Below are positions 8,177 through 64,000 of a stretch of DNA of 64,000 bases, in pieces. The stretch lies in contig JBNZDD010013510.1 of NCBI GenBank assembly GCA_050575255.1, positions 421,636 to 485,635 on the forward strand. The letters are read 5' to 3'. How positions within the stretch are numbered: the first letter of the stretch is position 1; every line of letters starts with the position of its first letter. The notes below the pieces were generated by a model. It saw nothing but the letters and a program-made list of their open reading frames with translations. It did no database searches and was not told the DNA's origin. This DNA is from Harriotta raleighana. Taxonomy: Eukaryota. The position numbers and the translations under genes are program-made.

Positions 8177-8368
8177 TCATTTCTTTTTTGCAAAAAGGCT
8201 GAATCTTTTCTCCTTGTCCTTTTTGCCAGGACTTGTTTCAGGAGCAATGGCGGGTGGGAGTGGGAGGGTATGTGCCCTGACTTCCCCTTGTCTGGCGCTT
8301 TGGAGCTGTGGTTCGTCATTCTCCGCGATGGCTGCGGTCAGATTCTGGATCCAGTTATTCATCTCCTC
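8177..8368 (-). CDS. sptb: Terminal coding exon of long isoform (EEMNNWIQ...[15 protein letters not shown])
   Basis: AG acceptor 8369-8370; 192 nt; PH C-terminal helix and basic beta-spectrin tail. Confidence 0.95.
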   Translation of the reverse strand, partial: EEMNNWIQNLTAAIAENDEPQLQSARQGEVRAHTLPLPPAIAPETSPGKKDKEKRFSLFAKKK

Positions 8369-11300
8369 CTAGAAGAACAAAAGAGACATTCAAAATACAA
8401 AATGTGCCCTGGTTATATTCCCAGTAGATCTGTAGTGAGGGACTTCAATATCTTTCATTTGATTTATACCACTCTGACAACAAATGCAAATGATTCACAA
8501 GGGGAAAAAAAGCATTCCATAGCTTCCTCACAAGCAAAACAAATCTGAGGTGTGCAACTCACTCGCATTTTATACATGCGATTTTTAAAAAAAAGACATA
8601 GGAATAACAAAGTTACTCACCTCATCCTTGCCGTGGAACAGGTATTCACTCCCACTGCTCAATCTGTAATACAAGACCAAGCATTATTATTTCACAAAAA
8701 TACACGCAGCTTGTGAAAAATAATCTGAAACTGGGTATAAAAATTCTAATTTCAGTGACATATTTAACAGCAGTTATAATGGGGACTAGTCTCTGTTGCT
8801 TCCAATCATCTAACCATCATCTTTCTCCCTCAACACTGTTTTCCCATTTTTTCCAGCACAGTAAAGCCTGACTTGCAAACTCGTACACAAATCAATTACA
8901 GTCAAATGTTTGTCCAAAATCACCACAAAAAAAGTTAAAACTATGCAACAATAATAGCATCCGTACGGATGGAACTATTCCATTATTTAACCAAAAAAAC
9001 TTGCATTTTGCATCGCTCAACTTCAAGTGAATATCTCAAGCACAATCTATTATAAATTTTTTATCTGGTAATCTCAAAACGTGTATGCCATGGACTAAAT
9101 AATGTATAGGGATAGAACTCACAGAATAGATGACGATTTTCACTCTATTGACAATCTCTGATATACCGCACAGTTATCACAGATCAATAGCGTCAACAGA
9201 AATTGAATTCCCGATTGATTTTACAACACTATTGTCCTTATGGCTCAAATTGTGAATTGTATGAATGAAACACAAATGTAGCACAGACTGTTGAGTAAGT
9301 TTAAAAGTACTTGATTATGCTACTGCTTCTGGACTTGTGACATACAACCTAATTCAGAAATGTCCATAAGAGGTGTCATTGCAGGAAATTTGTGACATCC
9401 TCCCAATGTGAAAGGTGCTTTACAAGTGTAAATTCTACTGCAGTGGGTTGAACGTTCCAATTGGATCTGTCTTGCAAATACTCACCGGAGTTTAAATACA
9501 TGTTTCTTCTTCTTGTAGTCAGCAGCCACCTCACAGCTTGCAGCTTTCAGATTCAGAGGTTCCTCTCCGTGGTACGTTACAACTGCGCTACAGTTCTTTG
9601 GGTCCTTATAGAAGCTAAATTCTCCTTTCTTCAGGGCACAATATAAAGTAGTCCAGGATCTGGGTTTTTGATACAGAAAACACGAGACGATAGGATCAAA
9701 AAGGGATTTTTTAAAAAAAATACAAATCAGAACTAATTGAATCAGAATGAAATTGCTTTTTAACATTTTTTTTTTACTCTTCATTAACAGAGACTGATTG
9801 TTAGGGTATGGGCCATCCTATGCTATAGGCCGTCCAAGAATGAATACGAGATTAACCAAACTCATTTCACACGGGCTTCGAGAGCACATGGCAGAGAGGA
9901 CATTTGCATGCCCCGAGATGAGCACAATTAGAAAGCAGAAATTCACCTGTTGGATGCCTTCTTATTTGGTCCATCTAGTTCATGCTTGCGTCCCAGGTAT
10001 CCCTCCAGTTGGGCAGTGTGGTCTCTAGGTGTTAGCACTGGCAGTGTAGATGCAAATCTAGATGTCTCAGGTCCCTGTTCTGTCAATATCAAGGGTGGAG
10101 GCTTCATGGCCTTTTCACGAGGTTTTTCTTCAATTTCTGATTTATCTTCAGTCTCCAATGTCTTTTCTTCTGGACTGTCAGTGCCATTTACGAGGACGGA
10201 AAGAGTTTCTGACGTCGTTACCTGATGGAAAAATTGTAGAACAAGATCAATAATCCCCAATGATGAGAATTTAGCGGACACCAGCAACTTGTGTTACTTA
10301 TAAGTTACTTCTCGGAGTCATGCACCTTAATGATGAATCAAACAGATTTGTGTTATTAAGGAGAGTGTACAAAGTGCTGAATACCCAACAGAATCAATAT
10401 CTTGTCAGAGCATTGTTAGCTTCTATTTAGTCATGCTGCATGCTAAGTAATGGAAGGTGAATAAGAAAAGCACAGTAAAAGGAACATTTGCAGATCAGTT
10501 TCTAGAAGTAATGTTAGCCTCCATGTTTTCATCTAATCTCCTTCCCCTTTTAGTATCTCTCCTAGGTTGTGTACCTCCCCATTGCCAAGAGGGCAGACTG
10601 TTCTCAGGATATATACCTTCCTATTCTGGATATACAATTGCGCACAAATTGTGTCTTCCCTTTTGGTTTTCTCTCCTACCCCCCCCCCCCACACCACCTT
10701 GGGAAAGCATGCAACATCTCTCTTCTCCTGCCAGCTGCCTAATGAGATCAAGTTCTCAGAGGAGAGGGAAATTGTACCCAAGTTCCATTGCCCCACACCA
10801 ATTGAACAAAAATCCTAGAGAGGGAACACTGACCCACTCGCCAAACGCACTACACACCAGGTAAAAGCCAACAACTCGTTCGCATCAGGTACCATATGAG
10901 CTGGTAAATGTGAGTTTACAACTTGGGTGATTGGGCAACTTATTGGAACCAAGGAGAAAGTTTAGAAAGGAAGACAAGCTATATAATGCTGAGGTAGGGG
11001 CTGACGTGGCATCTCAAAGTTGATGTGTACGAGTTGCCCATGCAAATGGCATGTGTCTTCTGCACAAGAGGTACATAGGTCCTGGTACAATGGTACAAAT
11101 ATACCAGTGTCAGCTTTTACTCAGTGTGTACTGCACATGATTAGTCCCAGCAGAGTCCTGTTTGTGGAGCAACTAAACAGCTCACCTTCGCCCACCTCGC
11201 ACTTGCTGTTTTTGTTTCACATCCTGTGGATCACTGGATAATATTGTAATTCTTCAAAAAACAAGGGTCATTAAATTGCACGACCAGAAGCAGCTGCAGA

Positions 11301-47300: not shown

Positions 47301-50300
47301 GCAATCGACCACTGATGAATCAAAAAACAAAACAGTGACGCTGAAATGACACCCGATCCAAAAAACATACCAGTTGTTCTCCTGAAAGCACTTCCAGCAG
47401 TTTAATAAGCATACGGCCATCCCGCAGGTCTGTATACAGATCAGTAATCCGACAGGTTACACGTGCCAGGTGAGAGTTCACCCATTTTGTAAAAGTCTTC
47501 TTCTGTACAGCTTCTCGCTCGTCTGAAAAACAATTGTAGAATTTACTTTGTGGAATCAGGAGCTATCTCTCGATATTTGCACTCTATTGTGAAATGGTAG
47601 TAGTTTGCAACCATCATGAATCGATACATCAAGAGAAAGCTTGTAGGATTAACATAAAACCCAGGTAATGAACAAAGGTCATTTACAGGATCTCTACATA
47701 ATGTAGACTGATGGACACAGAAAACCGTTTGGGTAGGGCACCACTGACAGATTTAATGATGGGATGTAAATGTAATAACAACAACATAAAAGAAATCTAG
47801 TAGCAGTATAAATAGTTGCTCATTACATTTCAATGGAATAAAAACCTCAATAAGGTTTATAAATAATACCAAGTATTTATCTATTTCAATCTGATATCTT
47901 TATTAATTATATGGGCAAAGTCAAATCCTCCGTGTTTGCTGATATTTATGCATGTTTGCTGGTGTACTAAACAATGTTAACATGGAGGAAGGCTGATTTA
48001 AAGGTAGAGGGAAAGGCTCTGAAAACAGGCACGGATGAAGGAAGAAACTTATAAAGGACGCAATGTGAATGCAGGAAGGAAAAGATAGTGCTCAGCACAA
48101 AGGTAAAATTAAAAAAGAAAAGGAATGGTTGAAAGGATTGTGGGAGGTGGGAGAAGGAGACAGCTGGCAAAGCATAGTTCTGCCCTGCTTGTTGGAACAC
48201 AACCATAAAAATTATACAAGCAGATTAGACTCGCTTCACTCAATGTGCATTCCCAATTCTGTTCTCAAGCTCCTTAGCTTGGTGGTATTTTTGTTCCCAT
48301 CTTCAATGATTCACCAAATTGCAAAAGGGAGCAATGTACAGTAAATGCAAGTTGTTGTCGTTCATTTCAGGTCTTCAGTAAAGTACAAACAAACAAAGAG
48401 GTATAATGTGGGAACCCAGCTACAGCTGTATCTGGACTGGTATCGTGAGCAATTTCACACAGGTTGTGAAAGGTGACGTTTCAGCTCTGATAGGTGTCTC
48501 GACCCGAGTTCAGATGGGCTAAAATTACTGGCAGCAGATTACTTTAGACCCTGAAGCTCTCCAAAGACATTTTAGACATTTGCACCCAAACCAATTGGCT
48601 TTCCTGCACAGCATTCAAACCAGTTTTTTCTGCCATCGTTGTGTATGGCTTTAGGCCCTGTGTAATGAAAAGCCTGCACAATGGCAACAGCAAGACTTGT
48701 GTCAAATAAATTGCTCAAAAAGTACACTTATTTATTGGGGCTTCGAAGTTTACTTTGGGATGCAATAAGATGCGCACACACTTGGGGGGGGGGGAAATGA
48801 AAGCGGTCCCTTTCATAGATAAATCAACTGCTCACCTTTAGTGTTAACATAAATAACGTTTTCAGCCTCATTCAATGCAGATGAATAGCATGTAGAATTG
48901 CTTGCAGGATGGCCTGAATGAACAACTTCATTCGGTCAAGTTCAAGAACAGCTTGTGCTAATAATAATCCTTGCGTTTGATATAGTGTTGGGAGAATGTC
49001 GCAAAGCGCTTCACAGAATTCACTGTAAAGTATAATGTAGTGTGTGTTTCTGTAGATAAACTGAACTTAGAAATTGAAAAAAAAAATTGGGAAAGTTGGA
49101 TTATCCAGCCTTATCTACACTGGTGCTAACTACTCTAGCTACAAAGAGAATCAACGAGTCCAATACCAAAGAGAATCTTTGTTAAACTAACCCTACTCTG
49201 CATTTAATTCATGCTATACCTGAGGCAGGAGCGTTCGATCTGACACCTTGATGAACATAACAATGTAAAATTTCTCAAAAGCATTTGATGTGAATGAAAA
49301 AGTTGGTACTGTATTATGAAGTGTCCAAAAGATTCAGCAATAAAACAGGGAGGAGGGAGGTGATATGCACAGTGATTATTCATTTCAGACAAATATTCAA
49401 TGTGCATATCACCTCCCTCAATGATTAACAAGGAAATAAATACACAGCCATTTCCTTAATTAACAGTATCTTTTGCTTTTTTTTGAACTGAATTTCAGTT
49501 TCTATGTAAATATGTGTGTGTGAGGGGTTGGCGAGGGAGAATCCATTCCCCAATAATAACTGAGGTACAGGGAGCCAGATGCACTATACAGCGAGCACTC
49601 AATGTTACTGCTTCGAGTGATTTAAAATGGATGAAAAGTGCAAAAAGAGACAGTTCAGTGATAGTGACAGAGGCATAGCTTGGGGAGGAGGAAGGGGGGG
49701 AAAGCAATGAGAAAGATTATCTGATTGCAGCAAATTCATCAATGTGAAGTTCAGCTGCATCCTAGGCATTCGTTTCTTTGATGCCTTTATGCCATAATAA
49801 TAATAATCCTTGTATTTGATATAGCACCTTATCTGAAGTATATAAAGTATTTATCCCACCTTTTCAATTTCAGGTTGTATTTGAGATAAAAACTAACACA
49901 AGAAGAAATTCCACTTGCGTCTAGATTTATTCATAGCAGTTTAGAATATTTCATGTAATTTAACATCTCAATGAGTTTAATTCGTACCTTTGAAGTTGGT
50001 CTTCTGTCATTTTTAATAGAATTTTAGAGAAATCCTCCCAACATTAAGCTGTACTTAAGAACCTCTAGACTTTCCAAGAAGGCTACGTGAAAAGAGTTCA
50101 ATTCGTGGAATTTCTCTTCAGCAGTTTAACAATCTATGGATGAGGTGTGGACACAAAAAGTGCACATTAGTGCAGCCCTTGAAAATAAACTGGGTACGTG
50201 AGAAAGCACTTAATCTAATTCATGTGACACCAGCACTTCTGACATCTGAGGAATCACTAAAACACAGAGAATGGCAACATGATTCTTGGGACACTGAAAA

Positions 50301-53300
50301 ATAAATTCCCAATAACTCTCAGAATCTTGGGACATCTGTATAGGGCTGTGGTGAGATCGCACCTAGAGTATTGTGGGCAGTTTTGGTCTCCTTATTTAAA
50401 AAAGGACATACTTGCCTTAGAGGGGGTGCAGCGTGGATTCACTAGGTTAGTTCCTGGGATGAGGGGACTGACCTTTGAGGATAGGTTGAATAAACTAGGG
50501 CTGTATTCTCTGGAGTACAGAAGAATTATTGGGGATCTTATTGAAACATAAGATTCTTAAAGGGCTGGATAAAGTAGGGACTGAGGGACTGTTTCCCCTG
50601 GTAGGAGAATCTATAACCAGGGGTCACAGTCTGAAAATGAAGGGTCAGCCTTTTAGAACAGAGTTGAGGAAACATTTCTTTACTCAGAGGATAGTGAATT
50701 TATAGGATTCACTACCCAGAAGGCTGTAGATACTCAATCCTTGAACATTTTCAAGGCTGAGACTGATAGATTTTTTAAAAATAGAGGGATTAGGGGATAT
50801 GGGGATAGGACAGGTAATTAGAGTTAGGTCAGAAGATCAGCCATGAACTTATTGAATGACGGGGCAGGCTTGAAGGGCCGAATGGCCTACTCCTGCTCCT
50901 AATTCTTATGTTCTGATGTTCTTATCCTCCCGATGTGAAGGGCACTCTATAAAGACAATTTTGTCGTTGTTGTTGATGATGATGAATGAGCCAGTGCCTG
51001 TACCATCTCTGCGTACATCATGCTGGCTAAGTATAAACCGCGCTGTGCTGTTTACAAGACCCTAACCCGTGTGAAGGGCGCTATATAGATGCAAGTTACT
51101 GTTCTTGCTCAGGAGGAAGCAAGTGCGACAGCAAGCTGCAAAAAAACAAAGTGAAATTCTGCACCATCCAGCAATTTTCTTCCAGCTCTTTGCAACATAT
51201 TCTAATACTTCGCAAAACCGCAGCAGCACAGATCAACCACCATTCACACACAGTCGGCCAACGGACTCTGCAGGGTCATTGTGCTTGCGATGACACACCC
51301 CATCGTTAAACAAATTCAACCACGCCAGCCAGTGCTTCATGGTTCCTGAGCAAAGAGCTGTGGGGTCTGAGCAAAAATGTTTGACGTAGCGCTTTTCATG
51401 TTTTCTAGACGTCTCAAAGCGCCTCACGGAATATACTGGAAAGTTAATTGCCTGGATATTTGTGGGCGAAACCCTGCAGCCAATTGTGCACAGCAGTGTC
51501 CCACACACGGTTGTGGATTGAAATGACCAATTTCTTTTGAGGGATTATTATCGGGCGTGTGAAGTAAGGAAACTTGCCCAAGGTTTCAGCCGGCCTGGAA
51601 TTGAACCCAGGTCTCTTGCTTGTAAAGTGAGTGCTCTAACCACTGCTCTAACAAATGTACTGTGTGAACAGTTATTTTAAATTTTAAAACCGCACGTAAC
51701 TACATGCGCCATCTCCCAATATAATCATTTGATGGACAATGTAAATAAATAATTAATGTTCTAGAGTTCCTGAATTAAACACAGAAACAGAATAACCTCA
51801 ACAGCACATTAGCTGCATCTCTGGAGATTTTTTGTTCCCAATTTGGAGGCAGAATCTCAATCTCCATTGATACCTGCAACGAGCTTTCTCCTGCAGCACA
51901 CACAGTTGTCGGTCCAGGGCAGGTTGTCAATTGGAATTGGAAAGAAATGAGAAAAGACTGAAAAACAGAGAAGTTTTCTCTCCCTAAACTGCCAGGAACA
52001 TCTCAAGGTAGGTCAAGCAAGTCTACACACCACATTGGGTGATTGACAACATTCCACGACCTAATCCAAGAGGAATGGGTGAACATGTACAAGCTAAAAG
52101 CTTGGGACAGCTGAGTAAATTAACAATGGATATACGAGAAAGAGAGACATTAGAATGATTCATTTTCCTCTGGAAAATGCAGTGTGGAAAGAGTTAATGT
52201 GTACATATTGTTTTCAATGGCGAAAGGTGCTGGGCTGAGTGATCAGGCAAAAAGCATTGGGCAAACAGTGACTGGGGCATGCATTCAGTTTGGAGCTGAG
52301 TTTTAAAAGCAGATCTGGATTTCTGTAAAGGTTTTCATTCCAATTTAATTGTTAAAAAAAAACAGTTAGAATCACCTGCAGGCACACTTTGACAGTGCTC
52401 TCTGGTGCATAACAGCATATAATGCACAGTTCAAAGTGCTTCCAGTTTCTTTTCAGCAGCCTCGACACATGACTGCCTGACGGGTCTTTTATTTAATGAT
52501 TTATGCACTCGTTGTTTCCACTTCACCTGCTTGAAACACAGTCACAAGACCTTTTTGCTACCAGTAACTGGGTGCCCAGTACCCGTAGCTCTGGTGGAGA
52601 CTTGTAGCTCAGTGGTTAGAGCACTCGCCTCACAAGTGAGAAACCTGGCAGGGTGAAATCTTGGGCAAGTTTCCTTACTCCACACGCCCGATAATAATCT
52701 CTCAAAAAAAAAAACGATAATAAATTGGTCATTTCGAACTACAACTGTACGTGGGAAACTGCTGGGTGTAATTGGCCGCCGCGTTTCACCCACAAATATA
52801 CAGTCAATTCACTTTCCAGTATATTCTGTGAAGCGCTTTGAGACATCTCGAAGACGTTAAAAGCGCTATATCAAATGCAAGGATTGTTATTATTATTATT
52901 CTCACTTCCGCTTGTATCCCCCTACTCCCCAGTTCTGACTTTTATGCACATTCACTGGACCTTTCAATACATGTATTAGTCTTGCAATAGTCTTACACTG
53001 TGCAATAGTCTTACACCTTCAGTCTGGAAGCTATACCTATGGTCAATAAACACACTGATGGTTGGTTTCAAAGAAACATAAATGATTAACAAGAACACAA
53101 CCAAACGTTCTAAGTACTTGTTTTGGCTCCTGTCCCAAGAACCCACCCCATCCCTAAAAAAGACTCGCAATTAAAATTGACTTGATCTCTCTGAATTAGT
53201 TACATGCAAACAAGCTTTTATATACACATCACATACCTAGACAGCAAAGGTCTCATTTCTACCGTTTTATTCTAAGTTAAAGTGGGATATGGCTTGTGTT

Positions 53301-53413
53301 TAAATCAAAGATAAAAATGTACCTTGTAACTGTTTGAAACGCCCATCCATGATATTGTAAGAGGTCTGATGTGAAGGATTGCAACCTGGGCACATCCCTG
53401 CCATGGCAGACAT
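8177..53413 (-). CDS. sptb: Beta-I (erythrocytic) spectrin gene model: 35 coding exons, 7029 nt / 2342 aa long isoform using the alternative first exon
   Basis: CH1-CH2, spectrin repeats, partial terminal repeat and PH domain in order; phases join without frameshift. SPTB-like segments: [76 protein letters not shown]. Confidence 0.9.
8621..8663 (-). CDS. sptb: PH-domain exon ([14 protein letters not shown])
   Basis: 43 nt, AG/GT flanks, phase fits neighbours. Confidence 0.93.
9486..9659 (-). CDS. sptb: PH-domain exon ([19 protein letters not shown]...[12 protein letters not shown])
   Basis: 174 nt, AG/GT, spectrin PH motif. Confidence 0.95.
9947..10221 (-). CDS. sptb: Linker plus PH start exon (VTTSETL...[22 protein letters not shown])
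   Basis: 275 nt; phase-0 acceptor matches the internal donor at 18972-18973. Confidence 0.9.
12530..12685 (+). mobile_element. 5'-truncated SINE (body plus L2-like tail)
   Basis: Matches the 3' half of the full copies at 45060-45395 and 52594-52900; ends aaatgcaag(tat)n. Confidence 0.75.
14872..15008 (+). mobile_element. 5'-truncated SINE
   Basis: cagtcaattcacttcac...gtgaaaagcgctat...(ATT)n. Confidence 0.75.
17247..17351 (+). mobile_element. SINE 3' tail
   Basis: Family tail ending in (TAT)n. Confidence 0.8.
17398..17701 (-). mobile_element. Near full-length tRNA-derived SINE (N at 17643)
   Basis: Head ctcctgtagctcagttgttaagag; body and tail shared with 45060-45395. Confidence 0.85.
18920..18973 (-). 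CDS. sptb: Read-through tail of short erythroid-type isoform ([17 protein letters not shown])
   Basis: In-frame continuation past the GTCAGT donor to TAG 18920-18922; same layout as the human erythroid tail (VSLWSRLSSSW...). Confidence 0.65.
   Translation of the reverse strand, partial: VSYQSKFCHSSQRFKAL
18974..19052 (-). CDS. sptb: Bifunctional exon, shared part ([26 protein letters not shown])
   Basis: Acceptor ttatcttttag, donor CTG|GTCAGT; 79 nt bridges phase 2 to phase 0 exactly. Confidence 0.88.
19927..20030 (-). CDS. sptb: Exon after the partial last repeat ([14 protein letters not shown]...IQQEK)
   Basis: 104 nt, AG/GTGAGT. Confidence 0.92.
20590..20980 (-). mobile_element. Decayed L2-clade LINE ORF2 3' fragment
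   Basis: Reads [23 protein letters not shown], resembling the L2 motif LxxLHWLPVxxRIxFKIL. Confidence 0.6.
21608..21804 (-). CDS. sptb: Partial last spectrin repeat, tetramerisation site ([11 protein letters not shown]...LERLTT)
   Basis: 197 nt, AG/GTAAGT. Confidence 0.96.
22581..22665 (-). CDS. sptb: Spectrin-repeat exon ([28 protein letters not shown])
   Basis: 85 nt, AG/GTAAGT. Confidence 0.93.
23021..23159 (-). CDS. sptb: Spectrin-repeat exon ([15 protein letters not shown]...HASEE)
   Basis: 139 nt, AG/GT. Confidence 0.96.
23483..23727 (-). CDS. sptb: Spectrin-repeat exon ([17 protein letters not shown]...EEKPR)
   Basis: 245 nt, AG/GT. Confidence 0.96.
24361..24735 (-). CDS. sptb: Repeat 14-15 ankyrin-binding region exon ([14 protein letters not shown]...HALGIQ)
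   Basis: 375 nt, AG/GT. Confidence 0.96.
25480..25684 (-). CDS. sptb: Spectrin-repeat exon ([17 protein letters not shown]...GQDFDQVI)
   Basis: 205 nt, AG/GTGAGT. Confidence 0.96.
25725..25920 (-). mobile_element. Diverged truncated SINE
   Basis: aataataat...ttgatatagcgc...tgtgggtgaaac...gaccaa body. Confidence 0.65.
26475..26605 (-). CDS. sptb: Spectrin-repeat exon ([15 protein letters not shown]...EEHPEG)
   Basis: 131 nt, AG/GTGAGT. Confidence 0.94.
27594..27869 (-). CDS. sptb: Spectrin-repeat exon ([14 protein letters not shown]...VDDKAK)
   Basis: 276 nt, AG/GT. Confidence 0.95.
28173..28262 (-). CDS. sptb: Spectrin-repeat exon ([30 protein letters not shown])
   Basis: 90 nt, AG/GT. 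Confidence 0.95.
28391..28600 (-). CDS. sptb: Spectrin-repeat exon ([16 protein letters not shown]...RDLEDET)
   Basis: 210 nt, AG/GTAAGA. Confidence 0.94.
29288..29551 (-). CDS. sptb: Spectrin-repeat exon ([12 protein letters not shown]...ILLKKLE)
   Basis: 264 nt, AG/GT. Confidence 0.95.
30321..30467 (-). CDS. sptb: Spectrin-repeat exon ([14 protein letters not shown]...KKIDK)
   Basis: 147 nt, AG/GT. Confidence 0.96.
30676..30766 (-). CDS. sptb: Spectrin-repeat exon ([30 protein letters not shown])
   Basis: 91 nt, AG/GT. Confidence 0.94.
30873..31075 (-). CDS. sptb: Spectrin-repeat exon ([10 protein letters not shown]...KSIDER)
   Basis: 203 nt, AG/GT. Confidence 0.95.
31969..32725 (-). 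CDS. sptb: Large spectrin-repeat exon ([12 protein letters not shown]...HILNNQ)
   Basis: 757 nt open frame, AG/GT. Confidence 0.97.
33959..34096 (-). CDS. sptb: Spectrin-repeat exon ([15 protein letters not shown]...ERLNHR)
   Basis: 138 nt, AG/GT. Confidence 0.95.
34380..34463 (+). mobile_element. SINE tail next to an exon donor
   Basis: ttctgtgaagcgctttgagacatc...aaatgcaaggattactattat. Confidence 0.75.
34468..35338 (-). CDS. sptb: Largest exon ([13 protein letters not shown]...LEVVQHR)
   Basis: 871 nt open frame, AG/GT. Confidence 0.97.
35813..35963 (-). CDS. sptb: Spectrin-repeat exon ([22 protein letters not shown]...FTEGE)
   Basis: 151 nt, AG/GT. Confidence 0.95.
36510..36812 (-). CDS. 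sptb: Repeat 2 exon ([13 protein letters not shown]...WMDEMK)
   Basis: 303 nt, AG/GT. Confidence 0.96.
39297..39455 (-). CDS. sptb: Repeat 1-2 exon ([17 protein letters not shown]...RLVSQ)
   Basis: 159 nt, AG/GT. Confidence 0.96.
40238..40355 (-). CDS. sptb: Repeat 1 exon ([24 protein letters not shown]...SDINR)
   Basis: 118 nt, AG/GT. Confidence 0.96.
41877..42064 (-). CDS. sptb: Repeat 1 exon ([12 protein letters not shown]...VEKPSK)
   Basis: 188 nt, AG/GTAAGT. Confidence 0.96.
42233..42345 (-). CDS. sptb: CH2 end exon ([26 protein letters not shown]...RIGK)
   Basis: 113 nt, AG/GT. Confidence 0.96.
42928..43043 (-). CDS. sptb: CH2 exon ([18 protein letters not shown]...LLDPE)
   Basis: 116 nt, AG/GT. 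Confidence 0.96.
43564..43644 (-). CDS. sptb: CH2 exon ([27 protein letters not shown])
   Basis: 81 nt, AG/GT. Confidence 0.96.
43761..43852 (-). CDS. sptb: CH1-CH2 exon (IQDITVET...[10 protein letters not shown])
   Basis: 92 nt, AG/GTAAGT. Confidence 0.96.
45060..45395 (-). mobile_element. Full-length tRNA-derived SINE with L2-like tail
   Basis: A box TGGCTCAGTGG and B box GTTCGAATCC on the minus strand, family body, (ATT)n tail. Confidence 0.9.
46047..46220 (-). CDS. sptb: CH1 exon ([20 protein letters not shown]...IILRFQ)
   Basis: 174 nt, AG/GT. Confidence 0.97.
47371..47522 (-). CDS. sptb: CH1 start exon ((D)[18 protein letters not shown]...LSGEQL)
   Basis: 152 nt; phase-1 acceptor tttttcag|AC GAG CGA. 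Confidence 0.97.
50336..50925 (+). mobile_element. 5'-truncated CR1-clade LINE (ORF2 C-terminus plus 3' UTR)
   Basis: [19 protein letters not shown]...[17 protein letters not shown] then an in-frame stop; ends ggcctactcctgctcctaattcttatgttctgatgttcttat. Confidence 0.92.
51380..51648 (-). mobile_element. tRNA-derived SINE, both ends eroded
   Basis: cagtggttagagcactcac head, GGTTCAATTCC B-box-like motif, family body. Confidence 0.85.
52594..52900 (+). mobile_element. tRNA-derived SINE (B-box region deleted)
   Basis: tgtagctcagtggttagagcactcgcc head, body, (ATT)n tail. Confidence 0.87.
53323..53413 (-). CDS. sptb: Alternative first coding exon ([30 protein letters not shown])
   Basis: Phase-1 donor CAAG|GTACAT joins to DEREAVQKK; the second ATG sits in GCCATGG; resembles the SPTBN1 alternative N-terminus ...YNYNQLEGRFKQLQ. 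Confidence 0.8.
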
Positions 53414-53654
53414 GAGTAGAGAGGTTGAGGCACGAGTGGGCGAGAGCTTTAGCAGGTGGTTCTGCACAGCTGCAATGCCACAAGCACTTTCAGAATCCAC
53501 TGGAAGGTGGAGCCCGCAAGTTGACAGTTAATTTCCCTTTTCCACGTTAGCAGTGCTCCAGCTCTGCCGGAGAGAGTTTCTGAGTAGATAACATGACTCT
53601 CGTCTGACAGTTCAATGCCAAGCCTCGACTCACAACCCTGCTCTCCCTGTCTCG

Positions 53655-53664
53655 CACACACCAC

Positions 53665-53695
<31 letters not shown>
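53655..53695. repeat. (CA)n/(CG)n alternating purine-pyrimidine microsatellite
   Basis: cacacaccacacacacacgcgcgcgcacacacacacacaca. Confidence 0.9.
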
Positions 53696-54135
53696 GAAGA
53701 TTTGCATATGAATTGGCTTCTATTTGAACACGTCCCTATCACAATAATCAGACTGAGTGATGTCACTTTTAATGTGCCCTCAAAGAGGTGTGGGAATAAA
53801 ACAAGAAAGACTCCAACAACAGGAGAGACCAGACCGGATATCACAGTGCAAATATTAGCAGTGTACTCAAAGTCTCCCTGAAGTCTGCCTGACTATAAGC
53901 CGAGTATAACTACAGTACACAGAACTTGGGTTTAGAAGCAGTGATAACATTAATACCTATATGACAGCAAATTAATGAAACATATTTAATAAATACTGGT
54001 TTAATAAATACTACATAACAAAATCGATAATGCTTCAATGACTAATAGATAACATAGATCACACCTCTGTTATATTGCTGGTTTGTGTGGTATCAATGCA
54101 AACTATGTTGTGTAATAGATTATATAAATTGATTC

Positions 54136-54251
54136 ATTTCGCCCACAAATATAGTCAATTCACTTTACAGCATATTCTGTGGAGTGCTTTGAGACGCCTG
54201 GGGGATGTGAAAAGTGCTATATCAAATCCAAGGATTATTATTATTATTATT
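54136..54251 (+). mobile_element. 5'-truncated SINE
   Basis: Family 3' half with (ATT)n tail. Confidence 0.8.
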
Positions 54252-56751
54252 CTACACAGCAGCAGCAAGTTGCGTAATGCCTTCATGTAGAGTGACATCT
54301 CGTAATGCTTTACAGAGATGGTACAGCAAGTAAGGAAGATGATAGTGGGATAGTGGGCTGGAAAGGGACAACCGTGGGAAGCGTTTCTGGAGACAAATAC
54401 GCAGGGGCAAAACAGAGGGATGGGGGCATAATGGCCGAAGGTAGGGCAGAGGTGGGTAGGCAAAAGGCAGGAGTTTTCAGAGCAGAATGGGCGCACAGAA
54501 GAGCGAAGCTGGAGCGACATTTCACAGCACATTATATTCTGTGAAAATGATATGTTCGTGTAAAATGCAGGCCGCACAGCCTCACTTATTTGCGCAACGC
54601 AAGCGCACAAGAATGTACATTTTGCATTCGGCAATATTTACACTGCCATCAAATAGGATTGGCAGCCCTGGGCGAAAATTTCCAATCTCAATTTTTAGGC
54701 AACAACAACTTGCATTTATATGGCGCCCTTCATGGCAGACGGCCTCTCGGGAGCTCTTGTATAACGCCTTTCACATTGTGAGGACGTCCAAAGCGAGGGA
54801 ATTGGACCCGACCTGTGGCTTAGGATAAGGAAGGATGGAGGGCAGGGAGGGTAGGGGTAGAAGCACGAAGGGACCTTACAGCAAACAGAAAGAGCAGCAT
54901 TAGTTCAAGCTGCATTCAAGCACAAACTCAATCATTCACCACCCAGCTTTTCTGCCCTCCATGTTAGCACATTTATTGATGCATTGATTTAAGAACATAA
55001 GAAATAGGAGCAGCAGTAGGCCATTCGGCCTTTCGAGCCTGCCCCGGTTCACAGAGAGATTTTTCTGTGATTTATTCGATTCACAGAAAGATTTTTGTTT
55101 TGTCAGCAGCAGGTGAAACAACAGACGGTAGCAGATAAAGCCTCTTGCCACAGTCATGCAATTAAAACTAGAGTGATACTAGGCTTCAATTCAGTGCATT
55201 TAACAAGGCCACGTGATTCTCTGCATTTGTGATCAGGGATTAAAATTTTAAGAAGCGTCAAAAAGCAGAATGGGAGGACGCAAGGAAGAGGGATTTTACC
55301 AGATGGTCGCTGAGAGTCAGGGGAAGAGAAAACAACTAAATCTAAGGCAGACAAACCATCAGGTGTGGTGACTATTTAAAGGCAGACACAGGAGCCACTC
55401 TGTGTAATCTAGGACATTAGCAGATGATGGCAGACAACGGCAGATGAAGCACAACAAGAGTTTTTCAGCAGTGNCCTGGGGGATGTGAAAAGTGCTATAT
55501 CAAATCCAAGGATTATTATTATTATTATTCTACACAGCAGCAGCAAGTTGCGTAATGCCTTCATGTAGAGTGACATCTCGTAATGCTTTACAGAGATGGT
55601 ACAGCAAGTAAGGAAGATGATAGTGGGATAGTGGGCTGGAAAGGGACAACCGTGGGAAGCGTTTCTGGAGACAAATACGCAGGGGCAAAACAGAGGGATG
55701 GGGGCATAATGGCCGAAGGTAGGGCAGAGGTGGGTAGGCAAAAGGCAGGAGTTTTCAGAGCAGAATGGGCGCACAGAAGAGCGAAGCTGGAGCGACATTT
55801 CACAGCACATTATATTCTGTGAAAATGATATGTTCGTGTAAAATGCAGGCCGCACAGCCTCACTTATTTGCGCAACGCAAGCGCACAAGAATGTACATTT
55901 TGCATTCGGCAATATTTACACTGCCATCAAATAGGATTGGCAGCCCTGGGCGAAAATTTCCAATCTCAATTTTTAGGCAACAACAACTTGCATTTATATG
56001 GCGCCCTTCATGGCAGACGGCCTCTCGGGAGCTCTTGTATAACGCCTTTCACATTGTGAGGACGTCCAAAGCGAGGGAATTGGACCCGACCTGTGGCTTA
56101 GGATAAGGAAGGATGGAGGGCAGGGAGGGTAGGGGTAGAAGCACGAAGGGACCTTACAGCAAACAGAAAGAGCAGCATTAGTTCAAGCTGCATTCAAGCA
56201 CAAACTCAATCATTCACCACCCAGCTTTTCTGCCCTCCATGTTAGCACATTTATTGATGCATTGATTTAAGAACATAAGAAATAGGAGCAGCAGTAGGCC
56301 ATTCGGCCTTTCGAGCCTGCCCCGGTTCACAGAGAGATTTTTCTGTGATTTATTCGATTCACAGAAAGATTTTTGTTTTGTCAGCAGCAGGTGAAACAAC
56401 AGACGGTAGCAGATAAAGCCTCTTGCCACAGTCATGCAATTAAAACTAGAGTGATACTAGGCTTCAATTCAGTGCATTTAACAAGGCCACGTGATTCTCT
56501 GCATTTGTGATCAGGGATTAAAATTTTAAGAAGCGTCAAAAAGCAGAATGGGAGGACGCAAGGAAGAGGGATTTTACCAGATGGTCGCTGAGAGTCAGGG
56601 GAAGAGAAAACAACTAAATCTAAGGCAGACAAACCATCAGGTGTGGTGACTATTTAAAGGCAGACACAGGAGCCACTCTGTGTAATCTAGGACATTAGCA
56701 GATGATGGCAGACAACGGCAGATGAAGCACAACAAGAGTTTTTCAGCAGTG
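54197..56751. repeat. 1277-bp direct duplication around a single N (54197-55473 / 55475-56751)
   Basis: Copies appear identical, ORF track repeats at offset 1278, N at 55474; probable assembly overlap. Confidence 0.9.
54990..55047 (-). mobile_element. CR1 3'-end fragment (second copy 56268-56325)
   Basis: Reverse complement resembles the CR1 tail at 50860-50925. Confidence 0.7.
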
Positions 56752-57289
56752 CTGATGGTCGCACACTGCACAGTTGCTTCCGTCGGTGAAAGGATGCCCA
56801 GAAACATCTCATCAGCATCGCTGTCGCTGTCTATTTCCTCCATGGGCTTGGATTGTAAATCTTTTGTTGGCAAATGCTCAGCATTGTCCGGACTGGGTGA
56901 CAATTCACTGCATTTGTTTGCCATTTCCACCTCGTTGTGCAGTTTTATGTCCTGGATTCCTGAAGATTTGCTGCGAACACCCATGGAGCGTTTTGACAAA
57001 CAGCATCAAGAGTTTTGTTTGATGTCGTCTGCTCTTTTATCATTACCTTCAGGCTTGTAAGCCAAGACGGCAAAAACACAAGGAACGGGTCAAAAATTTG
57101 GTGAAAGCTTTTCATATTTTAATAACAGCAACGTTTGAATGCCTGGAGTAGCTAAGACATTTCCTTTTTTTAAATACTGTACAATGATGCCACATGCGAG
57201 CTGAACTTCAAAGCTTCCACAACGTAATTAAAGGCTTTTGACAAGAGTTGAAATATTGTGTGAAAGTACTTGGCAAGCAAACCAACCAA

Positions 57290-57700
57290 CCAACAACCAA
57301 TGTACTATTTACACAGAGTAGCATCCCAAAGTGCTTCACTGTGCTGGTGTGAGGCAATGAGCCAGGGGTAGAGGGAGAGGGAGGGTAACTAAAAGCATGA
57401 TATATAAATGAAAGTCTCTGGATGGGCTTCCAAGGCGGGGAAGGATGGGGCAATGCAGAGGGATTGAGGGAGAGAGAGTTCGAGAGTTTTACGGCGAATA
57501 GAGAGGGGTGCGTTGGAGGAAGTTCCAAAGTTACTGAAGACTCAGCCAATGAAGGTAGGCATTTGGATGCGAAATTCAGGCATGCATTTGCTGAAGGGGA
57601 GCAAGCAGACAAATGGGGTGAGAAGAAAATCACAGCGTTCACAGGGAGGAGGAGGCAAGGGTACAAAGTAAATTTGAATTGAGGACGAGAACCTTTGAAA
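57290..57700 (-). mobile_element. Decayed L2-like LINE 3' end
   Basis: Pyrimidine-rich coding-like remnant ending in gtgaagcactttgggatgct, an L2-type tail. Confidence 0.5.
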
Positions 57701-58320
57701 TGGGATTCAGAGTTGAAAGAATTTCCCATTGTTAATGCAGACCAACTGAGGACATAGCTCAGTGGCTCATTTGCACCAGAAATTTAACATCAGAAAAAAG
57801 AAAATCACATTCGACGTGAAATTTAATCAGAAGCAGCTCTGATGTTTACAGAAATCTGCGTGAGGAGTCAAATTCTAGAACACAATATTCATCGAAGCAT
57901 CCAGCAGAATATTCTCTTAAAAATTCCGTGGAAACTGACAAGATCAGTTCGCAATTTGAAATCAAAGTTTTACGGATTCCCTGTTGCCATTAGCCACATT
58001 CCCAGAGCAGTTATTAATGTTCCATCACATTTACAGTCAAGCTGGTGATAAATCTAGGGCAGCTTTGGAAGTCAAACAGCTCAGTCCTTCAAAGCTTCAA
58101 CATCATAGAGCAGCAAACAGATGCACTTGCTCTCATCCTCATTTCAAATAATAATTACCATAATTCCACGTGAATATTCAAAACGGAAACGCAACAACAA
58201 AGCCAGGGAAAAAAAACATATAGAAATTAAAGTCATCAATTATTAACAGATTGCTTCATTTTTGCACAATGGAATTTCAAATCTGCTACTGGAAATAAAG
58301 AGAATCCTAGTAAAAAAAAA

Positions 58321-58430
58321 TCCTTGCATTTGATTTAGCGGCTTATCAGATCATTTAGACGTCTCAAATCGCTTCACAGAATATATTGTAAAGTGAATTG
58401 ACTCTATATTTTGTGGGTGAACGTGGTAAC
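58321..58430 (-). mobile_element. Truncated SINE
   Basis: tccttgcatttg...cttcacagaatatattgtaaagtgaattgac. Confidence 0.75.
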
Positions 58431-59211
58431 AAGGTGAAAAAAGCAGAAATTCATCCTCAGTTGTTCCAACACAATTACGAGAGGAAAAGAACACCCAGAA
58501 TGACAAAGAATGATTTATTTAAGCTCTTTGATGCAATCTGATTTCAACTTGGATGTGCTGCGCCCACGGAGAGGCCACTTTCTGTAGACAAGGCCACACA
58601 AACACAGGGAGAAATATTTGTTTGCCTCACTCTTCTGGAAGGAAGCGATGAGTAAGCATAACCCTTCAAAACAAAGGGAATCGGCTCAGTCGAAATCAAG
58701 CCACAAAATTAAAGTCCGTTCTCTTGCAAGGGGTGAGTGAGAGAAGTGAAGCGGATAGTTTTTGCCAAGTGAACAGGACTTTGAGCTCAGCGGCAGAGTT
58801 GCAAAGGAGTGCTCTCGCTATGGCAACCCAACCGAGAGACTGAGGCCAATTTGGGAGAAACATGGGAGTAATTAAGTGAGAAAGAATCGAGGGTTACACA
58901 CACCCCTTGTGTAACTAGAGCAGGACGCACACAACAGCAAACATTTGCTTTTAATAGCACATCCATTGGTAACAAAGCTGCACAGAGCTTTTATTGATTC
59001 AATCTCAAATTCATGTGCACTACTACAGTATATACTCCTTCGAATTCCACTATCAAGAAATGCTCGTTTTGCTTCAGCTGAAAAGACACCAACACAGAAC
59101 TGCTGATGGTTAAATACATTGCTTGAAATACACAGCATGCAAATCCTCTAGCCCAAGTCACCTAAACTGTTCCAAAATGGTTGTGGCTCCTTCAGGTCAC
59201 TGAATAGCATC

Positions 59212-59390
59212 AATCAAAATCAAAATCAAAATTTTATTTATAAAGCGCCTTTCACGTCGGGAGGACGTCCCAAAGCGCTGTACAGCCAAATAGGGGGGGA
59301 GGGTTCAGGGAAAGGAGTAGGAAAAATTGACTGTATATTTGTGGGAGAAACGCGGCAGCAAATTGCGCACAGCAGTGTCCCACAAACACA
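59212..59390 (-). mobile_element. SINE subfamily 3' half with (ATTTTG)n-like tail
   Basis: Shares the body with the main family but has a different tail; inverted partner at 60192-60357. Confidence 0.75.
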
Positions 59391-59399
59391 CACAGAAAT

Positions 59400-59652
59400 G
59401 GGGGGAAAAAATGGCAAGGGGGAGAAATGGAGGGAAAAGCGGGGTGGGGTAAAATCAGGGAAGAAAAGGGGGGGGGGAGAAAGGGGGACAAGGGGGAAAT
59501 CAGGGAGGGCAAAGAGGGAGAAATGTTGGCAAGTGGGAAGAGGGAGGGAAGGATGGGTAGGAGGCAAAACCAGAAAGAAAGGGGGGTAAGGGGGAAGAGG
59601 GAGGAAAGGGAGAGAGGGAAGGAGAAGAACAAAAAGGGGGAAAATCAGGGGG
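59400..59652. repeat. Polypurine G/A-rich low-complexity tract
   Basis: Many G3-G10 runs separated by A-rich spacers. Confidence 0.85.
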
Positions 59653-60191
59653 CATCCTTTGTAACATTAGATCCGGTGACCGGCGACCACAACTGCTATC
59701 ATGCAATTGGCTTGAATTCAAATCTGCGACGAAAACAAAACCCAGACTCCACCTACCAGATTGAACACTTCAATATCCATCATTGGACAGTCCAATATCT
59801 AGCTTGCGCAGTGTGGGATTTTGTTAATGTTTAATCGGACTCTGACATGCTATTTTTTGCAAAGTTCCAATTGGCTGGAATCTCTCCAATATAAAAGGTC
59901 ACGCGTCGGATTCAGATGGAGATTTAGTGTGGAGGAAAGCCATACAATAGCAATCTTTGGTCCAACTAGTTTTTGTCCCGATCCATTTTCTTTAAATTTA
60001 ACACAACCTGGCGACTTGAAATTGGTACCACACCAATTCTATGCTAATGCAAGTGCAGCAGATTGCCAACAGCAACAATCAACAGGAAAGATATTACACT
60101 CTAATTTGTTGTCTTAAATTGTTCCTCCAACTTAACAGAATTGTTCTAAATTGTCATTATCACATACAAATCCAATCTCACACTCTCCTCT

Positions 60192-60357
60192 TTCACCCAC
60201 AAATATACAGTCAATTTTTTCCTACTTTCCTTCCCCCGACACCCCCCCACCACCCCCCCCACCCCCGCGCTCTGATCCCTATTTGACTGTACAGCGCCTT
60301 GGGACGTCCTCCCGACGTGAAAGGCGTTATATAAATGTAATATTGATTGATTGATTG
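60192..60357 (+). mobile_element. SINE subfamily 3' half with (TTGA)n tail
   Basis: gggacgtcctcccgacgtgaaaggcgttatataaatg tail. Confidence 0.75.
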
Positions 60358-63028
60358 TATTCTGTGAATATTTGCTGTCTCCCTGCAGTTCTCTTGTATA
60401 TTTCGCATTCTGATGATGATATAGAAGGTCTGATGATGTACAACAAGCTCAGATAATGTGTCCGTCCCACAAAGGTCTCAGCGCACTGTAGATTGGTGAA
60501 ATTGGCTGCCAAGCATGGAAGTAGTAAGACGAGGTAGGTCTTCAGGTGGATTTGACGAAAGATAAAGGGTGTGGTGGGGGCGATGTGGAGGCATTGAAGC
60601 TTGGCAGTTCTGGTGATCATGTTCATCTGGAGTAATCTGATTCCTGAAGTGGACATTTTGAACGTATGAAATGACAGAGCGAGTATCAGCAACCTGAATG
60701 ACCATCAGGTGAGGAGAGGACATCCACAGACATCCGTATATAGGCACTCTCCAGCAGAGGTGAGTAATAGATGGCAGAGTGAGGAAACATTTTAAATAGA
60801 AAGCAAGCTCCATTTTTATAGTACCTTATCAGAAGTCCTCCAAGCACTGCACTGTAATTATGAGCATAGCAACAGTCTATTTGTCACGAAACAGCTGCCA
60901 ATGCTAGAATTTTATTGCAATTTATATTTTGTTAAAAGTGAGTTACACTCACTTTAATTAACTTCAACGATCTGAAGTACAATCATTTGCCACAGCAGTA
61001 TTCTACAAATGATCGCATTACTGTACAGTTTAGCACGTAATTCAGGAAAAAGCGTTTCAAAGGAACTTGTGGAAAGGGCAATGGCATGCTGAACAGAACA
61101 GCGTTAATTTGACTTTTAAAAATGTGACTTGAGGTGAAGTGAAAAATCACTCTTCTAAACCCAAAACAATAAGTTAGGATGCACCAAGACAGTAGCAGGT
61201 GAAGACATGAGTCTAGAGAGTTTCCATTGGCATTTTCAGTGTTAACAAGAGGAAGTATTCTTTACGCTGAGGGTAATTAACAATTGGAACTGGTTTCCAG
61301 AAACGGTTGTTAAACCTCGGACAGTGCCAGATGCTATGATGAGATATGGTAAAAAGCTGAGATCAAATCAGCCCCCAAAAAACTTTCTTCATCCCCCTCT
61401 CATGATCTAGTGTACAAGTGCCCACAAAGACTTGCCACTTCACTCCAGGTACTCGTCTGAAATCACACAATCACAACAGAAACCCTGCCAAATCTCACCA
61501 GGCATAGTAAAGTGGCCAAAAGCTCCCCCACAAATCTATCCTTCAATTTTAAACTGAAGGTTAAATTTAATCTTCAATCAAGCTGAACTACTTATAAAGA
61601 TTGTAAAAGGTCCAAGACCGGAACATTTCGAAACAAGGTCAGCACATTTTTACAATTCCCTGTTATTTATTTGTAAATGGAAAGTAGGTTATTGGTAATT
61701 GGCAGAGTTTTATAATTTTCTCTTACGGTCATTAATTTAAATTACAAATGAACCATGTGATAGACACAGCTACTGCCTTACCGAAGAGGGAAAGGTCAGC
61801 GAAAGTAAAGACTGAACTTGTAGTATTAGGTTTTCTGCCGTTTCATAAGCCTATTGAGTGAGAAAGATTCAACTGAGTAAATAAGTCGTTATTTTTAAAC
61901 AGATTCCACGTTACCCAAGTTATGTGATTAAAAAAATCAACTGTTAATAAACACTGCTTTTTCTTTAGGAATGTATTGCACAGGATGTTTTGTTGAATTT
62001 TCTGTGGTTTGGGCATTATTTAATCCAGGTTAGAAAATTGGAAAATCAAATCAATTGAATGGATAAAACCAATTGTTATGAGTTATTGTTTTTTTGGGAG
62101 GGGAATAAAAAGGATAGGCTGCATTGACTGGTGTCTAAAACATTGCAATCCAACCTGGGCTGAAGACAACCTTGATTTAACAGGCGCCTGGTGCGCTCTG
62201 GTTAAACTGACACTAAGATTAAGCATCTGCAGTTACGAGTGAGCATTTACAGGTTGCACTGGAATGTCGACAGCTAAATGTTGTGACCATTATTGCACAG
62301 CAGAGGTCATCCCAAGAATCCAAGGACAAATCTGTTAGCATTTAATGCTGCAAAACAAGTTTCAATCCAAGCAACTGGAGAGATCCAACAATGGACTGTT
62401 AAAGTGGGAGTCTTAACATCGATCCCCAGTCCTGACTGATATTCCTGTACGTGTTCAAAGAGTTTTCAGCAGTTGCTGCCGTGGCTGCTGAAGGGAAAAT
62501 CTTTCATCTGAGGGTGGAAGGTTAACAGAAGACAATCAAATGGAGGTTGGAAATCCCATCTAGTCTTAGACTGTGAAGCACTTTTCTTAAACTTTTAGAT
62601 GGGGCAGAATTGTGGAAGATTCCTAAATTAAATTCAATTTGGAAGCCGGTTCCTGTTTTTTTGGTGAAGAATTTTCCACAGTTCCACCCCATCTTTGAAG
62701 GGCTCTGAGACTCTACCCTACAAAAAGGGCTTCATATGAATGCAAGTTGTTGTTGCAGTATCTTAACTTGGAAGCCAATTGATCTTACAGGCCAAGCTAA
62801 GGCCATCTTGGATTTCAGGGCCTCTGCTCTTCATTCAGACTGTCCTGTCAGCTCTCCTGACATAAACAGAGCCTGTGGCTGAGAATGCATCAGTGAAGTG
62901 ACTCAAAATGTCTGGAGAGGTAAAAAGAAAATGGTATTTACAAATCAGAATGCAAGAAATCCAGTTTGTGAATCCTGGAGAATAATAATTCCAGTAATAA
63001 TTCCAATATGATCACTCAATCCACAACA

Positions 63029-63180
63029 TTTTTGTGAGACAATGCTGTGTGCAATTGGCTGCTGCGTTTCACCTACAAAACACCATCAATGCACTTAACA
63101 GTCTATTCTGTGAAGCACTTTGATATTCTCAAATACCGTGATAAAGCACTAAATCATATGCAATTATTATTATTATTACT
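63029..63180 (+). mobile_element. Diverged truncated SINE
   Basis: Family body and (ATT)n tail. Confidence 0.7.
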
Positions 63181-64000
63181 GCATTTTCAGCTGCATTGAC
63201 AGTGAATTCCAGCCACTCTCTCCGGTACGGACAAGTGGAACAGGCTGTTGTGTTGGCAGCCATGTCACGTACGCGATCCACTCAAGCAAGACCCCACACT
63301 TCTGTAAGAATTTAAGCTATGCTGTACTTAAGACTGAGCAGACAGCTGACTCACACAAGCAGGTACATACATTGCAAAAGATAGAAATTGCAGGTCATAG
63401 TTTAGACTAAGTACCATGTGGCATTCATCTCCCGAATCAACAAGGGGTCATTGAACACCAGAGCAGCAAAGTTTCTCGCCCAACATGCTCGTCTGTTATC
63501 TGTGGTCATACAGTAAAGAGTTGATCCTTCAACATTGACACGTCATAAATTTGTTGTGTTATTTATTATAAATATCCCCTTCGATCCATTCAGTACTGCA
63601 TTGAGCAGATTTTAGAGAGAGAGAGAGAGAGCCTGGTATAATGTTGCACAATATTTACACATTGTAGGAGGAGCTTGAATAGTCTATAATGATTCAACGC
63701 TGCTCAAAACATGCAGTATTGTCAATTTTGATATGCGTGACGTTATTTTTAGGAACTCAAAACAGAATATCTGGCTCGGATTTGGGCTCATCTATAATTG
63801 ATTTCCAGTATTCCTATTGGAAAGATTGTTTTCAGTCTCAATCACACAAACATACCCCTGAACAGACATTGGGAAAAGGAATCTTTCCAGGCCTCATTAA
63901 AAGAAAGTCTTTGAAGACAGACTGTATTGTAGCTTGACAAATACCAAACTTCCTGTCTGAACTGTCCTGTGACTATATTGGATTCACCAGGAAGCAAACA

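Follow-up and report, generated by a model that had tools for sequence, protein, structure and literature searches.

An intact exon for a likely alternative head of SPTB in Harriotta raleighana belongs to a head type common to three beta-spectrin paralogues

Among beta-spectrins, one of the closest known counterparts of the exon considered here is the alternative N-terminal exon of SPTBN1, which we take to be that of the ELF, or short, isoform; this short isoform was reportedly described in older papers. For beta-III spectrin, the available text of PMC8810934 places the first residue of CH1 at D53, has residues S37-A52 form a helix that touches actin and runs on into helix A, and reports the head to be essential in flies, while the available portions of a second paper indicate that deletion of residues 1-51 abolishes actin binding (PMC5676748). 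In the accessible parts of both papers, the canonical head is required for SCA5 toxicity in fly models and the beta-spectrin head is treated as single (PMC5676748, PMC8810934); the words 'splic' and 'alternative' are absent from PMC8810934. For plectin, the head region is described as turning helical and binding calmodulin in competition with actin (PMC5676748, in its available portions). The available sections of three reviews mention C-terminal or beta-IV variants and make no mention of an alternative head exon (PMC7757025, PMC3249148, PMC6546920), nor do those of a preprint concerned with another partner (10.1101/2024.07.23.604764). No title or abstract opening in the literature searched, which left most subscription papers and supplements outside, describes such an exon in SPTB or SPTBN2, and peptide strings of the head gave 0 literature matches.

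The stretch of DNA analysed here, referred to as the window, comprises 64,000 nucleotides of the Harriotta raleighana genome and holds most of a beta-spectrin gene, all features of which lie on the minus strand. A coding exon proposed at 53323..53413 by the first-pass annotation stands as described, its translation giving the same 30 residues in an intact reading frame (30 codons plus 1 base, phase 1, ending GRFKQLQ). It is followed by the splice donor GTACAT (53317..53322; AAG/GTACAT), assigned from sequence and matrix score, by an intron of 5,800 bases (47523..53322) and by the shared CH1 exon (47371..47522). The exact join to DEREAVQKK that had been claimed is likewise reproduced: CAA G/GTACAT and ttttcAG/AC at 47522 together give Asp, completed by the first codon of the CH1 exon and followed in frame by EREAVQKK, and this Asp is the equivalent of D53 of beta-III spectrin. 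Scored with a matrix of 25 approximate donors of sptb itself, the donor exceeds 99.9% of the 911 upstream GT sites, and its AAG/GTACAT 9-mer is identical at two other donors of the gene.

The exon carries the core [LM][ED]GRF[KR]QLQ ending in a phase-1 donor, and when all 68,404 12-mers from the six frames of the window are scored against five homologous heads, no other does as well as its last 12 residues. Conservation is lacking in the first 18 residues. Searched as a 40-residue query against database proteins of 71-2000 aa, the exon returned 1 candidate and none at E<=10. Since the ATG at 53413 stands in a weak context (CTC ATG T) and an in-frame ATG at 53404 in a strong one (GCC ATG G), the predicted head may comprise 27 instead of 30 residues. 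The presumed 5' UTR or putative promoter region (53414..53800) contains a (GT)n/(CG)n tract. Upstream of it, an intron (53801..64000) runs to the end of the window towards the canonical SPTB-type coding head exon. That head is absent from the window itself; a pattern search of the genome matched it at C13510:485944-485972, within an exon of 50 codons in phase 1 that ends RIKALA (C13510:485942-486092, minus strand, about 300 bases past the window end). The order in sptb is thus canonical head exon, alternative exon, CH1 exon.

Several further features were noted around and between the two head exons. The 11-mer CACTGCTAACG (window ~53545-53555) precedes the alternative ATG by 142 bases in sptb and by 172 bases in sptbn2, and is followed by TAACTG in both; as a conserved promoter element it was rejected, its alignment score being reached in 8 of 500 shuffles and some common 11-mer appearing in 13% of 2,000 shuffles. 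A tandem duplication at 54197-56753, with a spacing of 1,278 bases, exact over the compared stretch and joined at one N (55474), is probably an assembly overlap artefact, in which case the true distance between the head exons is shorter. The same intron holds a single-copy ORF of 114 codons rich in S, E, D and P (56984-56643, minus strand), which was set aside as an upstream coding exon, since it lacks a good phase-1 donor, matches nothing in Pfam or Atlas and is unlike the long teleost head; it may be due to chance.

Regarding the identity of the gene, collinear beta-spectrin sequence stretches between 47532 and the final exon, near 8180 (tblastn, bird and seal SPTBN1 queries), and the canonical head is SPTB-like, its INARW...DELDNDNSSAR matching human and bird SPTB rows. 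In a quick IQ-TREE run of 21 rows, with both head types removed, a midpoint root and an octopus row as outgroup, the window gene is sister to teleost and amniote SPTB (SH-aLRT 100) and does not group with SPTBN1 or SPTBN2, which supports the SPTB orthology that the first-pass annotation had put up for checking; the row labelled 'OUT_P0260' proved to be Salminus sptb. From this position, we infer that the source fits a cartilaginous-fish-like lineage. A Churchill gene lies at C13510:512983-514925, separated from the canonical head exon by 27 kb, and is followed by a glutathione peroxidase gene whose best PDB match is GPX2; both (C13510:513-522 kb) are on the minus strand, as is sptb. An alpha-actinin gene lies about 290 kb from sptb, with a CH exon at C13510:180890. 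Human SPTB is presumably flanked by CHURC1 and GPX2. The tree, the Churchill neighbour and the GPX2-like neighbour are the grounds on which the gene is assigned to SPTB.

The exon also has homologous copies within the same genome. A degenerate pattern for GRFKQLQ followed by G/GT has 3 matches in the 1.1-Gb genome, all inside beta-spectrin genes, against 0.036 expected and 0 matches for the reversed control pattern; the window match is there by construction, and the other two are independent. The canonical-head pattern occurs on the same 3 contigs, upstream of the alternative exon each time and with G/GT donors on both exons, and in the quick tree with heads removed the two remaining loci are placed in the SPTBN1 (SH-aLRT 98) and SPTBN2 (SH-aLRT 100) clades. 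The order of canonical head exon, alternative exon and CH1 exon is the same at all three loci, the join in sptbn2 being a predicted one, as its CH1 exon sits on a separate 1.5-kb contig. Over the last 12 codons, 8-10 residues are common between paralogues, and 3-6 of those codons differ silently in each pair, which at the sequence level is the pattern of protein-level constraint. A fourth canonical or alternative exon, that of SPTBN4, was not found in this assembly, which is fragmentary at the 1.3-kb contig bearing an sptbn4-like CH1 exon.

Because homologous exons sit in the same order in sptbn1 and sptbn2, the exon is older than the split of the paralogues, in agreement with the origin before the beta-spectrin duplications that had been proposed from the window, and the simple reading of these sequences would be that the two-head layout was inherited from a single ancestral gene before the vertebrate duplications. 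The label 'SPTBN1-type' given to the exon at the outset holds as to homology with the SPTBN1 exon and proves too narrow otherwise, the exon being common to beta-I, beta-II and beta-III.

Beyond Harriotta, homologues were drawn from the best 120 of 994 and the best 120 of 965 matches and from cluster look-ups, the three homologue searches covering proteins of up to 2000 aa, with full-length isoforms above that length outside their range; most of the supporting records are automated models. Among the matches listed, spliced SPTBN1 forms with the alternative head occur in mammals (including mouse and primate), birds, sturgeon and teleosts, and SPTBN2-type proteins with it in gar, a salmonid and a goby. 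The human SPTBN2 predicted isoforms X3 and X4 (XP_011543518.1, XP_011543519.1) carry the paralogous head. These isoforms are among the mammalian SPTBN2 entries with this head in rows P0204-P0208, P0132, P0242 and P0244, which also include unnamed assembly-derived proteins. Within SPTB itself, teleost models with the alternative head are those of Salminus (XP_072545676.1), Astyanax (UniRef A0A8B9K1W9) and Mugilogobius (KAK7904445.1); both heads are present in Salminus and Astyanax sptb, and an Asp before GRF is common to the Harriotta exon and the teleost sptb heads. When rows were classed by signature and not by tree, the alternative head was found in 5 of 9 teleost sptb rows and, among proteins of up to 2000 aa, in none of 37 SPTB-type rows of tetrapods (none of 26 in the best 120 of 965 matches), which weakly suggests its absence from tetrapod SPTB. 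The caveat that the exon might already be annotated widely in SPTB orthologues, and so be of lower novelty, is partly borne out by the three teleost sptb models. In two of the teleost sptb records the head is 177-181 residues long (P0362, P0245), and its first 100 residues are conserved between characiform and goby.

Outside the vertebrates, the beta-spectrin models X1 and X2 of Branchiostoma belcheri (XP_019630687.1, P0068) represent one gene with two heads before the same CH1 exon. With BLOSUM62, the non-canonical head of this gene scores 15-21 when compared with the alternative heads of vertebrates and 3-7 when compared with canonical heads; of the 68,404 12-mers of the window, 6 score as high. 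A chordate origin of the second head is thereby made likely at the sequence level, on the basis of one automated amphioxus model; the filtered rows from the 150 best representatives added no further invertebrate alternative head.

At the other end of the gene, the 3' switch invoked by the first-pass annotation is present in the sequence: in the 3' switch exon (18920..19052), the donor after 18974 would either splice to the PH-bearing exons, the next of which starts at 10221, or be read through to a stop at 18920, giving a 17-residue tail. With two heads and two tails, four end combinations of sptb are possible on paper. Database models combine the alternative head with the PH tail in Salminus sptb X1 and seabass sptbn1 X9, and with a short tail in rabbit SPTBN1. 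The read-through tail of sptb starts VSYQS and resembles the VSYRS of the rabbit SPTBN1 short tail (P0122); the 3' switch, too, may be older than the paralogue split. Stretches encoding GVAYS[GD]RK... were also seen at 19125-19050 and 14690-14620 (minus strand), the first just upstream of the 3' switch exon; they may represent additional short terminal exons, or else a repeat.

Taken together, the sequence data make it quite probable that this is an intact coding exon of SPTB that is transcribed from an internal promoter as an alternative first exon and places a different head before the actin-binding domain. The mechanism proposed has five steps. Transcription would begin at the internal promoter, with a start a few hundred bases upstream of the exon in the intron; translation would start at 53404 or 53413; the alternative exon would be spliced to 47522, whereby the canonical head would be excluded; the last 9-12 residues would extend helix A of CH1 onto actin, in the manner of the canonical S37-A52 helix of beta-III; and an acidic head of 50 residues would be exchanged for a short, near-neutral one. 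Since the junction coincides with the CH1 start given in the literature, a switch between the two exons would affect the structural head in its entirety, the actin-contacting helix included, and leave the rest of the protein as it is. Residues 46-52 of PDB 6ANU can be aligned gap-free with GRFKQLQ, K and L do not vary among 22 aligned rows in which both head types are represented, and, counted back from the junction, R, K and L are retained at residues 6, 4 and 2; a Glu stands one residue nearer the junction in the alternative head than in the canonical one. The canonical head has 11 D/E and 5 K/R in 50 residues, the alternative head 1 D and 2 K/R in 30, and from this change of an acidic for a near-neutral head it follows that actin binding would probably be kept, with its strength or regulation differing by tissue. 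Such tuning by head swap, suggested by analogy with the canonical helix, is held with less assurance than the use of the exon as a first exon, and the papers searched yielded no assay of an alternative head. Two further lines were dropped: for two database proteins that carry the paralogous head (P0020, run on the 22-row alignment, and P0099 alone), AlphaFold2 gave one helix across the junction, with mean pLDDT of 41.0 and 48.7, too poor to serve as support, and palmitoylation of two head cysteines was discarded, as these cysteines are not kept in teleost heads.

Three other readings have to be weighed against use as an alternative first exon that alters actin binding. The exon could be internal, entered through an acceptor from the canonical or an unseen upstream exon so that a longer or tandem head results; upstream of it there is no strong acceptor and one weak in-frame candidate, a phase-1 AG at 53499, 86 bases above the ATG, from which the frame is open to the ATG and just upstream of which stand branch-like CTAAC/TTAAC motifs. 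Teleost sptb models with heads of 177-181 residues fit such an arrangement, as do four automated models in which both heads are chained (P0098, P0101, P0135, P0138), although the linkers of the latter are inconsistent. The 53499 candidate scores 5.1, at the 92nd percentile and at the bottom of the real acceptors of sptb, the reading frame of the sptbn1 copy is closed by a stop some 20 codons before its ATG, and an upstream exon resembling the long teleost head is found in none of 2,939 ORFs (best HMM E-value 1.4), all of which makes an internal exon improbable. Less probable still is a decaying, unexpressed relic in the Harriotta lineage, on its way to a loss that tetrapod SPTB may already have undergone: the more divergent upstream part, the weak first ATG, the lack of a match among database proteins of 71-2000 aa and the 0 of 37 tetrapod SPTB-type rows would suit it, yet the frame is open, the second ATG strong and the donor top-ranked, the differences in the core are silent rather than replacements, and the Asp before GRF is as in teleost sptb.

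A more serious contender, to which we nevertheless give a clear minority of the weight, is that the head is a neutral by-product of a second promoter, its peptide restoring the helix and leaving actin binding and partners unchanged. It coincides with the main reading in the first four steps and differs from it solely at the change in actin binding, the fifth. The R, K and L of the helix, kept in both heads, and the remainder of the alternative head, which varies freely in length and sequence, agree with neutrality, whereas the core [LM][ED]GRF[KR]QLQ is fixed in three paralogues in a form unlike the equally fixed canonical core and is shifted in register by one residue. With the use as an alternative first exon retained as the preferred reading, a broader scenario can be put forward tentatively, as one that may well not hold in full: a two-head switch that arose before the vertebrates, and whose second head takes the place of just the actin-contacting helix and confers another actin affinity, would have been kept in fish beta-I, beta-II and beta-III and lost in tetrapod SPTB, and would persist, unstudied, in human SPTBN2.

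With fish sptb models already containing the orthologous exon, the gain for the Harriotta genome alone is one of annotation. A head-swapping exon that is kept in three paralogues, and in SPTB on the deepest of the branches sampled, raises the question of whether the two heads bind actin differently, and the alternative head of human SPTBN2 bears on SCA5 work on the beta-III N-terminus; if the broader scenario is true, a second head in SPTBN2 could alter the behaviour of the SCA5 variant L253P, whose toxicity needs the canonical head.

Among known systems, the alternative N-terminal exon of SPTBN1 (the beta-II 'isoform X2'-type, mouse Q9Z2V0) agrees with the exon in position, phase, GRFKQLQ core and join to CH1, and its copy in Harriotta is identical to the sptb exon at 9 of the last 12 residues; the sptb exon differs in belonging to another paralogue, in having D rather than E before GRF and in an upstream part that is unrelated except for a CP/SP-like stretch. 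The teleost sptb heads are its direct orthologues, within the SPTB clade and with the canonical head alongside, and have the core ILDGRFRQLQ; they differ in being 28 or 177-181 residues long and in a conserved basic, Ser-rich part without a match in Harriotta. In human SPTBN2 X3/X4, the paralogous exon ends VLEGRFKQLQ before CH1, the difference lying in a head of 59 residues and in the beta-III paralogue. The X1 head of B. belcheri closes with MEHKYKALQ, which stands in register with the alternative heads of vertebrates, with just 2-4 identities in the last 9 residues of a single automated model known as protein. Plectin, in which, according to the available portion of PMC7408014, interchangeable first exons are spliced to a common exon 2, with which the actin-binding domain begins, and so place their heads directly before a tandem-CH domain, resembles sptb in layout, with 12 first exons against the two coding heads found in sptb. 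Set among these systems, the exon is real, ancient and ordinary in kind, and it belongs to the beta-spectrin alternative heads already held in databases for SPTBN1, SPTBN2 and teleost sptb.
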